Sequence record: MT185428
Length of the DNA stretch: 4,526 nucleotides
Reading direction: 5' to 3' (one strand)
DNA from: Escherichia phage EC6098
Below are positions 2 to 4,504 of the stretch, in pieces. The translations under genes were made by a program, and so were the position numbers. The number at the start of each line of letters is the position of its first letter. Position 1 is the stretch's first letter. Under the pieces are notes generated by a model, which saw only the letters and a program-made list of their open reading frames with translations, ran no database searches and was not told the DNA's origin.

Positions 2-29
2 GTTAAACTAAATATACATTATGCGCACT
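2..29 (-). other. dif-like XerC/XerD recombination motif (candidate attachment site), reverse orientation relative to canonical E. coli dif
   Basis: Plus strand 2-29 is GTTAAACTAAATATACATTATGCGCACT. The reverse complement of E. coli dif (GGTGCGCATAA-TGTATA-TTATGTTAAAT, recalled from memory) is ATTTAACATAATATACATTATGCGCACC. By hand alignment: XerC arm 10/11, central hexamer 6/6, XerD arm 7/11, total 23/28. Confidence 0.5.
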
Positions 30-41
30 AAGGTGCGCATA
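20..41. repeat. Perfect 9-bp inverted repeat TATGCGCAC-(TAAG)-GTGCGCATA; duplicates the XerC-arm-like sequence in inverted orientation
   Basis: Positions 20-28 (TATGCGCAC) are the exact reverse complement of 33-41 (GTGCGCATA), with a 4-nt spacer. The repeat overlaps the dif-like motif and lies just upstream of the Rep ribosome-binding site. Confidence 0.9.
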
Positions 42-1717: not shown

Positions 1718-1729
1718 TGACACCGAAAC

Positions 1730-1757
1730 TTACAGGCGGCTCCCACGAAGCCTGTAA
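1730..1757. repeat. Second intergenic hairpin: 8-bp stem (TTACAGGC / GCCTGTAA) with a 12-nt loop
   Basis: Positions 1730-1737 are the reverse complement of 1750-1757. Followed by AAA rather than a T-tract, so not a classical terminator on either strand. Confidence 0.8.
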
Positions 1758-1759
1758 AA

Positions 1760-1817
1760 AGGTGTCAGTTTATACAGTAGTTTGTATAGTATTTAAACAA
1801 TTCCCTGAGGGGGGTTT
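1760..1817 (+). promoter_or_regulatory. AT-rich leader of the capsid gene with a candidate -10 element (TATAGT, 1785-1790) and G-rich Shine-Dalgarno sequence (GAGGGGGG, 1807-1814)
   Basis: TATAGT matches TATAAT at 5/6 and is preceded by TG at 1783-1784. No convincing -35 hexamer at 17-bp spacing. The Shine-Dalgarno core lies 3-7 nt upstream of ATG 1818. Confidence 0.3.
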
Positions 1818-3518
1818 ATGAGTAAATTCGGTCGTAAAGTACCTAGTAATGCAAAAAGTCAGCATAATTTTTCAGTAATCCCGAGTGCCAATATTCAGCG
1901 TTCGGTCTTTAACCGCAGCTCTGGTTATAAAACCACTTTTGACGCTGGTTATTTGATTCCCGTGTTTCTGGATGAGGCTTTGCCGGGTGATACGTTCCAC
2001 CTGAAAACGTCCGTACTGGCGCGTTTATCCACGCCAGTGGTGCCGTTTATGGATAACCTGCGACTGGACATCCAGTATTTTTCCGTGCCCTACCGTCTGG
2101 TCTGGGATAACTGGCAGAAGTTCAACGGTGAGCAGAAGAATCCAGGCGATTCGACGGATTACCTTATCCCGCAGATTAAAGCCCCTGCAGGCGGCTTCCC
2201 TGTAGGCTCCCTTGCCGATTATTTTGGTGTTCCCACAGGTGTGGAGAATATCAGTGTAAGCGCTCTGCCGTTCCGCGCTTATAACCTGATTTATAACGAG
2301 TGGTATCGTGATGAAAACCTGATTAATTCCGCCCCGCTTCCGCTTGGCGATGAGGAAGAAACAGGCCTCGCCAATTTCCCGCTGCGTAAGCGTGCCAAGC
2401 GTCACGATTACTTCACAAGTGCCCTGCCGTGGCCTCAGAAAGGTGAAGGCGTTGAGATTGGTTTAGGCGTTCCGCCGTCGTATACGCTGGAGTACCCTTA
2501 TTACAAGGAAGGTATGGGATTTATTTCGTCTAACTATGGTGCGTCTGGAAATATTGGTCGTACTTTTCCGACGTATATTGCTCGTAGTAGTGTTGGTGAT
2601 GATTCTTCATCTAACATTGGTAATGCTGCTTATTTTTCCGAAGGCCTGGAGAATGGTATTAATTTTCCGAATGCTCCGGCTCGTGGTCGCTATGATGTGC
2701 TTGGTGGTTTTGACCCCAATACACCTCCGGTTACGTTGAAGAAAGAAGGTGGTGAAGTTGTTGATAACCTCACGATTAACTCGCTGCGTCAGGCGTTCCA
2801 GCTTCAGCGGCTGCTTGAGCGTGATGCTCGCGGTGGTACGCGATACATTGAGATTATTCGCAGTCATTTTGGCGTCATTTCTCCTGATGCCCGTGTTCAG
2901 CGTCCTGAGTATCTTGGCTCTGGTTCGTTCGATATAAATATTAATCCCGTTCTTCAAAACTCCGCGACTACCGACGCCAGTCCGCAAGGTAACCTTGCCG
3001 CTTATGGCGTTTCAGGAGGTGTTAACCGTGGTTTTTCTCACTCTTTTGTTGAGCATTGCTTTGTTATTGGCCTTGTCTCCGTTCGAGCAGATTTGACCTA
3101 CCAGCAAGGCATTCCGCGCATGTTCTCCCGTCAGACCCGCTTTGATTTCTACTGGCCTGCACTGGCCCACCTGGGCGAACAGGCTATTCTTAACAAAGAG
3201 ATTTATGCGCAAGGTAACGCCAAGGATGATGAAGTCTTTGGCTACCAGGAACGTTATGCGGAGTACCGCTACCGACCGTCCCAGATTACTGGTAAATTGC
3301 GTTCTACCGACCCGCAATCCCTCGACGTGTGGCATTTAGCCCAGCGGTTCGACTCTCTGCCCGCACTGAATCAGGAGTTTATCGAGGAGAATCCACCGAT
3401 GAAGCGCGTTCTCGCCGTACAGGACGAACCCCAGTTCATCATGGATGCGTTCTTTGACCTGAAGTGTGTGCGGCCTATGCCTGTTTACTCAGTACCAGGT
3501 CTTATTGACCATTTCTAA
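1818..3518 (+). CDS. VP1: Major capsid protein (Microviridae VP1 / F-like)
   Basis: 566-aa ORF with strong Shine-Dalgarno sequence. N-terminus MSKFGRK...FSVIPSANIQRSVFNRS...FDAGYLIPVF and the central block LRQAFQLQRLLERDARGGTRYIEIIRSHFGV are characteristic of Microviridae capsid proteins as recalled. A Gly/Ser/Asn-rich insertion at roughly aa 210-315 is consistent with the gokushovirus surface loop. Confidence 0.95.
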   Translation: MSKFGRKVPSNAKSQHNFSVIPSANIQRSVFNRSSGYKTTFDAGYLIPVFLDEALPGDTFHLKTSVLARLSTPVVPFMDNLRLDIQYFSVPYRLVWDNWQKFNGEQKNPGDSTDYLIPQIKAPAGGFPVGSLADYFGVPTGVENISVSALPFRAYNLIYNEWYRDENLINSAPLPLGDEEETGLANFPLRKRAKRHDYFTSALPWPQKGEGVEIGLGVPPSYTLEYPYYKEGMGFISSNYGASGNIGRTFPTYIARSSVGDDSSSNIGNAAYFSEGLENGINFPNAPARGRYDVLGGFDPNTPPVTLKKEGGEVVDNLTINSLRQAFQLQRLLERDARGGTRYIEIIRSHFGVISPDARVQRPEYLGSGSFDININPVLQNSATTDASPQGNLAAYGVSGGVNRGFSHSFVEHCFVIGLVSVRADLTYQQGIPRMFSRQTRFDFYWPALAHLGEQAILNKEIYAQGNAKDDEVFGYQERYAEYRYRPSQITGKLRSTDPQSLDVWHLAQRFDSLPALNQEFIEENPPMKRVLAVQDEPQFIMDAFFDLKCVRPMPVYSVPGLIDHF

Positions 3519-3535
3519 GTTACATTGTCACTTTT

Positions 3536-3558
3536 GGCCTCTGCGGAGGCCTTTTTTT
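3536..3558 (+). terminator. Rho-independent terminator between the capsid and pilot genes
   Basis: GGCCTC-(TGCG)-GAGGCC forms a perfect 6-bp GC-rich stem (3536-3541 / 3546-3551) with a 4-nt loop, followed by seven T residues (3552-3558). Begins 18 nt after the capsid stop codon (3516-3518). Confidence 0.8.
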
Positions 3559-3572
3559 CATGAGGTGAAATT

Positions 3573-4352
3573 ATGGGCTTTTTATCATCTGCCGTTGGTG
3601 CTGTTGGTTCCATTGCCGGTTCTCTTCTCGGTGCCCACTCTGCCCAGCAGAACGCCGCACAGGCGAACAAGTTAACGATGGATTTGGCCAAAAACGGTAT
3701 GCAGTACCGCGTACAGGATTTGCGAAAAGCTGGTCTTAACCCGATTCTGGCCGTTACTGGTTCCGGTGGTCTTGGTTCCGTCAGTTCGTCAGGTATTCAG
3801 GCCGCCCAGCCTGCCGATTTCTCAGGAGTGGTTAATTCTGCGGTTAGCGTATTTGACGCCTTAACGCGCCGTCAGCAGCAGGAAGTTGCCCGTGAAGGCA
3901 TCATGTCTCAGATTGCGTTACAACGTAACCAGATTGCGAATAGCGCGGCTGATGTGAAGCTTAAAGAGGCTCAGGCTGCCCAGGCTATCCAGAGTGCCGA
4001 TAACATGCGATCGCAGTCGAATCTGATTAATCAGCAGGTTTTGACCGAGGCTTCCCGCCGTGCCAATATTGAATCTCAGACAGGCCTTAATTCTGCACAG
4101 CGGATTAGAACACAGTATCAAACTATGCAGGATAAGGTTATTCATGACTATTTACAGACTGATGCCGGTAAGGCTTCTACGGTAGGTTCTTATGATGCAA
4201 AATCTGGCGGGCTTCCAGCTCTTGGTAATTATATTTTTGGTGCTGGCGCTCGTTTCTTTGGTGATAAAAGTTCTGCGAAAGCGGTAAGCAAGGGGGGACG
4301 CCTCCCCCCTAACCAGTTCCAGCAGCAATTGATTAACAACTATAGGAGGTAA
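3573..4352 (+). CDS. VP2: DNA pilot / minor capsid protein (VP2-like, functional analogue of phiX174 H)
   Basis: 259-aa ORF with Shine-Dalgarno GAGGTG (3562-3567) 5 nt upstream. Gly/Ala/Ser-rich hydrophobic N-terminus (MGFLSSAVGAVGSIAGSLLGA) followed by a long Gln/Ala-rich, probably coiled-coil segment. Sits directly after the capsid gene, as in gokushoviruses. Confidence 0.75.
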   Translation: MGFLSSAVGAVGSIAGSLLGAHSAQQNAAQANKLTMDLAKNGMQYRVQDLRKAGLNPILAVTGSGGLGSVSSSGIQAAQPADFSGVVNSAVSVFDALTRRQQQEVAREGIMSQIALQRNQIANSAADVKLKEAQAAQAIQSADNMRSQSNLINQQVLTEASRRANIESQTGLNSAQRIRTQYQTMQDKVIHDYLQTDAGKASTVGSYDAKSGGLPALGNYIFGAGARFFGDKSSAKAVSKGGRLPPNQFQQQLINNYRR

Positions 4353-4354
4353 TT

Positions 4355-4474
4355 ATGGCTCGTTCTCGCCGTCGTATGTCTAAGCGTTCTTCCCGTCGTT
4401 CGTTCCGTAAGTACGCAAAGACGCATAAACGTAACTTTAAAGCCCGCTCCATGCGTGGCGGCATTCGTCTTTGA
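4355..4474 (+). CDS. Small arginine-rich DNA-binding/packaging protein (phiX174 J-like; gokushovirus small basic ORF)
   Basis: Hand translation gives MARSRRRMSKRSSRRSFRKYAKTHKRNFKARSMRGGIRL (39 aa, roughly 45 percent Arg/Lys), ending at TGA 4472-4474. Consensus AGGAGG at 4344-4349 lies 5 nt upstream of ATG 4355. The start is 2 nt past the VP2 stop codon. Not in the supplied ORF track, presumably because of a length cutoff. Confidence 0.75.
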   Translation: MARSRRRMSKRSSRRSFRKYAKTHKRNFKARSMRGGIRL

Positions 4475-4504
4475 TTGACAAAGTTGATCGTAACGATCTA
4501 TGAT
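4475..4504 (+). promoter_or_regulatory. Candidate sigma70 promoter reading rightward across the window end (toward Rep if the genome is circular)
   Basis: Perfect -35 TTGACA at 4475-4480, an 18-bp spacer, then -10 TATGAT at 4499-4504 (5/6 to TATAAT). Predicted transcription start near 4511. Located immediately after the small basic ORF stop codon. Confidence 0.5.
4486..4498. repeat. Short palindrome GATCG-TAA-CGATC containing two GATC (Dam) sites, within the promoter spacer
   Basis: Positions 4486-4490 (GATCG) are the reverse complement of 4494-4498 (CGATC). Lies between the -35 and -10 elements of the candidate promoter. Confidence 0.6.

Follow-up and report, generated by a model that had tools for sequence, protein, structure and literature searches.

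A probable intrinsic terminator between the capsid and pilot protein genes of a temperate Escherichia coli gokushovirus

Genome and host

The window analysed here, a stretch of 4526 nt, is a complete enterogokushovirus genome, and the IMG/VR contig UViG_2974561223_000001 is identical to it. All six genes (6/6) are encoded on the + strand. There are only three noncoding stretches in the window, and the 54-nt spacer between VP1 and VP2 is one of them. The features are as follows.

63-926 (or from 21), + strand: VP4/Rep (Pfam REP_ORF2-G2P)
913-1182, + strand: VP5-like gene
1163-1660, + strand: VP3 scaffold (Chlamy_scaf, 5e-34)
1762-1790, + strand: candidate promoter GTGTCA-17-TATAGT upstream of VP1, a consensus match only
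1818-3518, + strand: VP1 major capsid, stop TAA at 3516-3518, the last gene before the putative terminator (Pfam Phage_F, 4e-185; ORF list)
3519-3535, + strand: 17-nt spacer from the VP1 stop to the hairpin, poorly conserved, with substitutions and indels in the alignment of relatives
3536-3541, + strand: 5' arm of the hairpin, GGCCTC, invariant in close relatives, with compensatory changes in the lineages L012 and L013
3542-3545, + strand: tetraloop TGCG, of the UNCG type, with a C-G closing pair
3546-3551, + strand: 3' arm of the hairpin, GAGGCC
3552-3558, + strand: T7 run (U-tract of the RNA), with no gap to the stem
3562-3568, + strand: VP2 Shine-Dalgarno region GAGGTGA, with GAGGT invariant in the close-relative alignment
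3573-4352, + strand: VP2 DNA pilot or minor capsid protein (PHROG 8693 'pilot protein for DNA ejection', 8e-20)
4355-4474, + strand: VP8-like gene, 39 aa, Arg/Lys-rich, downstream of the putative terminator (PHROG 10695, 1.6e-10; gene order in PMC7062461)
4475-4504, + strand: candidate sigma-70 promoter TTGACA-18-TATGAT upstream of VP4, with 11/12 consensus matches only

Among phage records, Microvirus mar4 comes closest, with 86% identity, and its annotation at the position of VP2 reads 'DNA pilot protein'. Prophages that are 86-94% identical to the window are found in 7 complete E. coli chromosomes. In all 7 they sit between a fimA-like gene and hipA, adjoining dif, and because of this the host is taken to be E. 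coli. To our knowledge, no gokushoviruses other than the enterogokushoviruses can be cultured on E. coli.

Both the gene order of the window and the dif integration of the prophages agree with the enterogokushoviruses of Kirchberger & Ochman 2020 (PMC7062461), and the small ORF at 4355-4474 corresponds to their VP8. The dif-like motif at window 5-32 on the - strand, AGTGCGCATAA-TGTATA-TTTAGTTTAAC, is the XerCD integration site described for this group (PMC7062461). For comparison, the dif of E. coli reads GGTGCGCATAA-TGTATA-TTATGTTAAAT. One prophage locus (L002) has, on the two sides of the integrated prophage, a bacterial dif that is near-perfect and a phage dif that diverges more. At position 443 of the metagenomic contig L012 there is a dif that is perfect for the E. 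coli type.

Structure of the hairpin

The spacer between VP1 and VP2 holds the hairpin GGCCTC-TGCG-GAGGCC (3536-3551), followed at once by seven T's (3552-3558). The initial annotation had reported exactly this, a GC-rich 6-bp stem plus seven T's between the two genes. It also put the stem 18 nt after the VP1 stop codon, which is right as an offset: with the stop at 3516-3518 and the stem starting at 3536, 17 nt intervene. The 14 nt to the VP2 start were likewise correct, given that the T-run ends at 3558 and the ATG is at 3573.

Five of the six base pairs in the stem are G-C, the loop is 4 nt long, and the T7 run starts without a gap. A prediction of the RNA folding energy had been proposed as a check, and it yields -11.7 kcal/mol for the hairpin. 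Within a 220-nt context, each of the six stem pairs has a pairing probability of at least 0.986.

An intrinsic terminator has a GC-rich hairpin, its stem roughly 5-14 bp and its loop 3-8 nt long, and a U-rich tract that starts 0-2 nt from the stem; the element has both. It is found on the sense strand and belongs to, or ends, a transcription unit whose upstream promoters are consensus matches only. Its structure is kept over its sequence, as judged from a hand-registered alignment in which the variation comes from two lineages. A d'Aubenton-Carafa-type score for the window comes out at +42; as the formula was run with modern energy parameters, this score is given no weight.

The element resembles those intrinsic terminators of E. 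coli that have C(UNCG)G tetraloops, with a short GC-rich stem, a stable tetraloop and an uninterrupted, abutting U-tract. It differs from the canonical ones in that its stem is only 6 bp and there is no upstream A-tract. Because this A-tract is absent, the element would be unidirectional.

How often does such a site arise by chance? A strict scan was set to require a perfect stem of at least 5 bp, a dG of -8 or lower and at least 6 T's in 8. It finds a single site on the + strand of the window, the hairpin at 3536-3558, and zero sites on the - strand. A hairpin next to a T-run could still be a chance palindrome that does nothing. A loose scan is in keeping with that, since its 7 sites compare with 5.4 expected in shuffles, which is not significant, and the + strand is T-rich, with three more T7 runs. 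Set against this, only 5 of 500 dinucleotide shuffles have a comparably good site anywhere (dG of -11 or lower, at least 7 T's in 8). The other T7 runs on the + strand lie inside VP4/Rep (112-118, 368-374 and 674-680), none of them with a preceding hairpin.

Conservation

The close relatives compared are the 7 E. coli prophages, Microvirus mar4, the IMG/VR contigs L010 and L011, and four metagenome contigs. In all of these, 12/12 stem positions are unchanged and the T-run has six or seven T's (T6-T7). The spacer from the VP1 stop to the stem comes in five versions, with indels. The loop varies at its second base alone, and reads TGCG, TCCG or TTCG. This pattern suggests that the stem and the T-run are under purifying selection in the close relatives. 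Flanks that diverge around an invariant stem also argue against a chance palindrome.

Farther away, the upstream prophage of Intestinirhabdus alba, with 62% VP1 identity, has the stem of the window plus TTTTTGTT, 6 nt past its VP1 stop. In full, its element is AGGCCTC-TCCG-GAGGCCT and then TTTTGTTG. Lineage L012 (65% VP1 identity) has GGCTCC-CGCG-GGAGCC followed by TTTATTT, and L013 (62% VP1 identity) has GCGTCCC-CCCG-GGGACGC followed by T8. Both share the gene order VP4-VP5-VP3-VP1-VP2-small ORF.

Eight distinct sequences were aligned by hand and registered on the loop. All 48 cells (48/48) are paired, and four of the six pairs show changes on both sides, where the covariation support comes from two divergent lineages (L012 and L013) and a register chosen by hand. 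Control registers, slid by 1-3 columns, have 0 double changes and 38-67% pairing. The variants in L012 and L013 could be independent gains instead of compensated descendants. By gain or by descent, a hairpin with a T-run recurs at the same genomic position. Such compensatory variants at one position in distant relatives again speak against chance, and a palindrome without function is, in our view, extremely improbable.

A T-rich tract directly follows the stem in 8/8 lineages. The loops of all lineages (TGCG, TCCG, TTCG, CGCG and CCCG) fit YNCG with C-G closing.

The anatomy, the sense strand, the conservation and the compensatory stem changes down to 62% VP1 identity together appear to bear out the initial reading of the site as an intrinsic terminator. 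It is quite likely that this temperate E. coli gokushovirus carries a Rho-independent terminator, on the mRNA-sense strand, directly after VP1.

Further searches were made for relatives and for an origin of the element. A comparison of the whole window with the covariance models of Rfam 15 gave no relevant match at E <= 1, and a known RNA family was rejected as its identity for want of such a match. Among 5,426 complete E. coli genomes, the 35-mer of the element occurs inside the prophages only; at that sensitivity a copied host terminator was rejected as well. A gapped DNA pattern that left the hairpin free, run against IMG/VR and a metagenome collection, found no haplotypes beyond the known ones. 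With tblastn against the phage collection there is one close relative, mar4. A scan of species-representative genomes found 5 loci, of which the I. alba locus alone was informative. Searches seeded with the VP1 of L012 and that of L013 found both to be singletons.

The I. alba locus (L089, NZ_WMJZ01000007.1, 1-6600) has two different gokushovirus prophages in tandem. In the upstream one VP1 ends at 1287 and VP2 starts at 1328, with the terminator-like element present. In the downstream one, which is without it, VP1 occupies 3998-5635 and VP2 starts at 5645. There is a dif-like site at about 6589.

RNA or DNA

In microviruses, the strand found in virions is the one with mRNA sense. Strand therefore cannot separate a role in RNA from a role in DNA, since the viral ssDNA has mRNA sense. 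It is conceivable that the hairpin acts on the packaged or entering ssDNA, as a complementary-strand origin (a priming or PriA-type site) or as a packaging signal. It does form in DNA too, at only -5.9 kcal/mol, and in the F-G intergenic region of phiX174 both ori(-) and the PriA site overlap the hairpin of T_F, which likewise follows the capsid gene. The phiX174 site is of another size however: its 5' stem alone is nt 2308-2326, far more than the 16 nt found here. A complementary-strand origin of that type is a long imperfect ssDNA hairpin of tens of nt that PriA or primase recognises, and 3536-3551 is no such hairpin.

There is also a better structured region elsewhere. The VP3-VP1 region (1661-1817, 157 nt) is far more structured as ssDNA, with a fold of -28.8 kcal/mol (z -3.6), and one of its hairpins, which has a phiX-like ACTTGAT loop, is conserved throughout the family. 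Furthermore, an essential origin cannot generally reside between VP1 and VP2, because most gokushoviruses have no spacer there. The YNCG loops and the kept T-run are features of RNA and of terminators, and a T-run is useless to a DNA hairpin. All this makes a role in ssDNA very unlikely.

A YNCG loop closed by C-G is reportedly exceptionally stable in RNA, and not in DNA. The kept T-run, these loops and the weak ssDNA fold point to a hairpin that would act in RNA, as a terminator does.

A Rep nick site (ori+) for rolling-circle replication would have its nick motif in a hairpin loop. The loop here is TGCG, and this identity was rejected for 3536-3551, given that the conserved hairpin with the ACTTGAT loop is in the VP3-VP1 region.

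Transcription

Two candidate promoters lie upstream. The one at 4475-4504 starts directly behind the stop codon of VP8, ahead of the dif-like site and VP4; at the same place L010 has TTGACA-18-TACGAT. This is a likely source of transcripts reaching the terminator, going by its consensus match. For the candidate at 1762-1790, mar4 and L010 have a site identical to GTGTCA-17-TATAGT upstream of VP1.

A VP2 promoter overlapping the terminator was also considered. The sequence TTGGCC-16-TTTCAT (3534-3561) matches at 8/12 positions and fails the scan criteria. It was rejected since its -10 hexamer is without an A at position 2, and its leader would be about 5 nt, without a Shine-Dalgarno site.

The 14 nt from the T-run to the VP2 ATG contain the Shine-Dalgarno site only. 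Because this gap is too small for a promoter, VP2 and VP8 should be transcribed by read-through only, as the initial annotation had suggested for VP2 and the small basic ORF. As these genes need read-through, termination must therefore be incomplete. Most likely this is an ordinary, leaky terminator, at which the majority of transcripts with VP1 would end and be stabilised.

The proposed mechanism is then as follows. Host RNA polymerase would start at the upstream candidates, 4475-4504 before VP4 and 1762-1790 before VP1, and would eventually transcribe GGCCUC-UGCG-GAGGCC and then U7. The 6-bp hairpin, with its 5 G-C pairs and stable UNCG-type tetraloop, would form in the exit channel while a weak rU:dA hybrid occupies the active site. 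A fraction of the polymerases would release their RNA, and the release site is expected at about 3556-3560. These RNAs would have VP1 as their last cistron, and the hairpin at their 3' end should protect them from 3' exonucleases.

The Shine-Dalgarno region at 3562-3568 lies downstream of the expected release site and should therefore be present only in read-through RNA. Polymerases that read through would make the sole RNAs with this site, VP2 and VP8, and could run on into VP4, the replicative form being circular. The terminator would in this way set how much capsid mRNA there is relative to pilot-protein mRNA. Transcripts ending at the hairpin, the efficiency of termination and the effect on protein ratios are what we infer from this arrangement.

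The hairpin could instead be mainly a 3' stabiliser or processing barrier of the VP1 mRNA, with little real termination. Polymerases would then mostly read through, 3' exonucleases would trim back to the hairpin, and VP1 mRNA would accumulate by stability and not by attenuation. A stable hairpin with a UNCG-type loop suits this role. In phiX174, the terminators are weak, with a block of 20-40%, and context-specific effects on expression have reportedly been put down to mRNA stability or enhancer sequences (Hayashi & Hayashi 1985; Hayashi et al. 1989). For a pure stabiliser the U-tract would be superfluous, yet a T-rich tract is kept in all eight lineages, and we regard this explanation as unlikely. 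The two roles are compatible: the difference between them is one of degree, in the same element.

A translational role is also imaginable. The minimum-free-energy fold of 3519-3572 (-16.4 kcal/mol, z -2.55) has an outer helix that encloses the hairpin and pairs UCACUUU (3528-3534) with GAGGUGA (3562-3568), which could hide the VP2 Shine-Dalgarno site in read-through RNA. A C-to-T change in E9 and mar4 leaves a G-U pair in this helix. The upstream arm is, on the other hand, unconserved in L010, L011, C5, L012, L013 and the I. alba prophage, and a T-rich spacer is expected, by its composition, to pair to some extent with a Shine-Dalgarno site rich in purines. The helix was rejected as the main function because the arm is not conserved, and such regulation is highly improbable.

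A mini-ORF, ATG AGG TGA (window 3560-3568), overlaps the VP2 Shine-Dalgarno sequence. It is kept wherever CATGAGGTGA is conserved and is absent in strain C5. It is probably incidental.

Comparison with phiX174

In phiX174, the leaky terminators T_J, T_F, T_G and T_H follow genes J, F, G and H, and transcription falls stepwise. The block is 20-40% for each of T_J, T_F and T_G, and about 70% for T_H. The measured efficiencies are uncorrelated with folding energy. The initial annotation called the site in the window strong, a statement on efficiency that goes beyond what sequence can tell.

Within this series of Bullavirinae terminators, T_F is the natural counterpart of the element described here. 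Both are Rho-independent, with a hairpin and a U-tract, in a genome with a single coding strand and directly after the major capsid gene. Both would be leaky of necessity, with essential promoterless genes downstream, and in both cases these include the pilot gene (H in phiX174, VP2 here).

There are also clear differences. phiX174 has four terminators in series and the window has a single strict one. T_F is a long hairpin, whereas the one in the window is minimal and has no sequence homology to it. The efficiencies in phiX174 are measured values, and termination in the window is a prediction.

Such terminators are textbook material for phiX174, but we found no earlier description of one for enterogokushoviruses in the literature. 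The founding paper on this group does not mention a terminator, promoter, hairpin or transcript, and a search of the literature, in which 11 papers name the genus, found no transcript data for enterogokushoviruses.

Terminators across gokushoviruses

The same strict criteria were applied to 187 non-redundant gokushovirus genomes. On the + strand, strict terminators are 4.3-fold denser in noncoding DNA (61 in 119 kb) than in coding DNA (90 in 752 kb). There are 151 on the + strand versus 76 on the - strand, a twofold difference. At least one noncoding strict terminator is present in 46 of the 187 genomes.

At least 30 of 52 noncoding strict terminators lie after VP3 or before VP1. Most gokushoviruses, among them the downstream prophage of I. 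alba, have no VP1-VP2 spacer, and their VP1 stop is followed at once by the ribosome-binding site of VP2. The position between VP1 and VP2 is confined to the clade of the window (mar4, L010, L011, L012 and L013), and outside this clade there is one weak match only, in L200. The L013 site is masked by a spurious ORF in the noncoding scan. The VP3-VP1 region of the window itself has no strict terminator.

Elements of this kind thus exist in other gokushoviruses too, where they use the same strand and are enriched in noncoding DNA; an example from gut gokushoviruses is GATCGCCCGCTTGCGGCGATC followed by T8. The usual place there is after VP3 or before VP1, which leaves the VP1-VP2-...-VP3 set as one unit, whereas in the clade of the window it comes between VP1 and VP2. 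The element is ordinary in kind, and its position is clade-specific. For gokushoviruses in general, it is dispensable.

The initial annotation had explained the site by stating that partially efficient terminators in microviruses tune the abundant capsid protein against low-copy proteins. The leaky terminators of phiX174 are a precedent for this. As a statement on microviruses it is too general, as most gokushoviruses lack the VP1-VP2 spacer and have their terminator after VP3. A stoichiometric rationale for VP1 versus VP2 is plausible, but it is incomplete since it fails to explain the VP8-like basic protein downstream. If VP8 is a J-like DNA-binding protein it would be needed in many copies, which goes against a simple stoichiometry argument.

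A bolder reading gives the displacement itself a function. In the enterogokushoviruses and the two nearest lineages, the only canonical terminator would have moved from its usual place after VP3 and before VP1 to the one between VP1 and VP2. Read-through would then gate VP2, VP8 and, on a second pass around the circular form, the Rep gene. Modulated read-through would serve as a control point for a six-gene temperate phage that has no recognisable repressor, with host factors, the growth state or a phage protein as conceivable modulators. If true, read-through would decide between quiet carriage and productive virion assembly. We consider this distinctly unlikely.

As an ordinary leaky terminator, the element together with the two candidate promoters would provide the first testable transcription map of an enterogokushovirus. 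In this map, transcription from promoters before VP4 and VP1 would proceed through VP1 to the terminator, with read-through into VP2 and VP8. The site would also offer an easy way to engineer the ratio of capsid to pilot protein. The comparison adds a small point on how regulatory punctuation moves in very compact genomes: the position of the terminator differs between gokushovirus clades even with the same gene order. The current view of microvirus biology is not changed by this.

Other hairpins

The VP3-VP1 region of the window is 92-96% identical to that of otherwise distant gokushoviruses. It has a hairpin at 1681-1717 (within 1677-1724), with a 10-bp stem CCTGGCACAG/CTGTGCCAGG and a 17-nt loop containing ACTTGATGTAAC. 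The ACTTGAT motif is presumably at the core of the gene-A nick site in phiX174. It is found on the + strand in 148 of 188 gokushovirus genomes, versus 33 for the - strand, usually upstream of VP1 and with TGACAC after it; the flanking stems differ in sequence and still pair. The hairpin at 1681-1717 is probably the Rep nick site, or (+) origin.

Window 1718-1767 has a second large hairpin, GACACC...GGTGTC, around a smaller one. Its 3' arm and the candidate VP1 promoter overlap at the -35 hexamer. In other gokushoviruses, the same GACACC/GGTGTC stem with a short T-rich loop and a T-run scores as a strict terminator before VP4.

Near the VP2 end, L010 (3731-3750) and mar4 (L001, about 2465-2487) have a palindromic G6/C6 hairpin (AGGGGGGATTCTTCCCCCCT). 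It scores as terminator-like on both strands and is absent from the window. The VP2-VP8 region in which it sits is variable according to Kirchberger & Ochman (PMC7062461).
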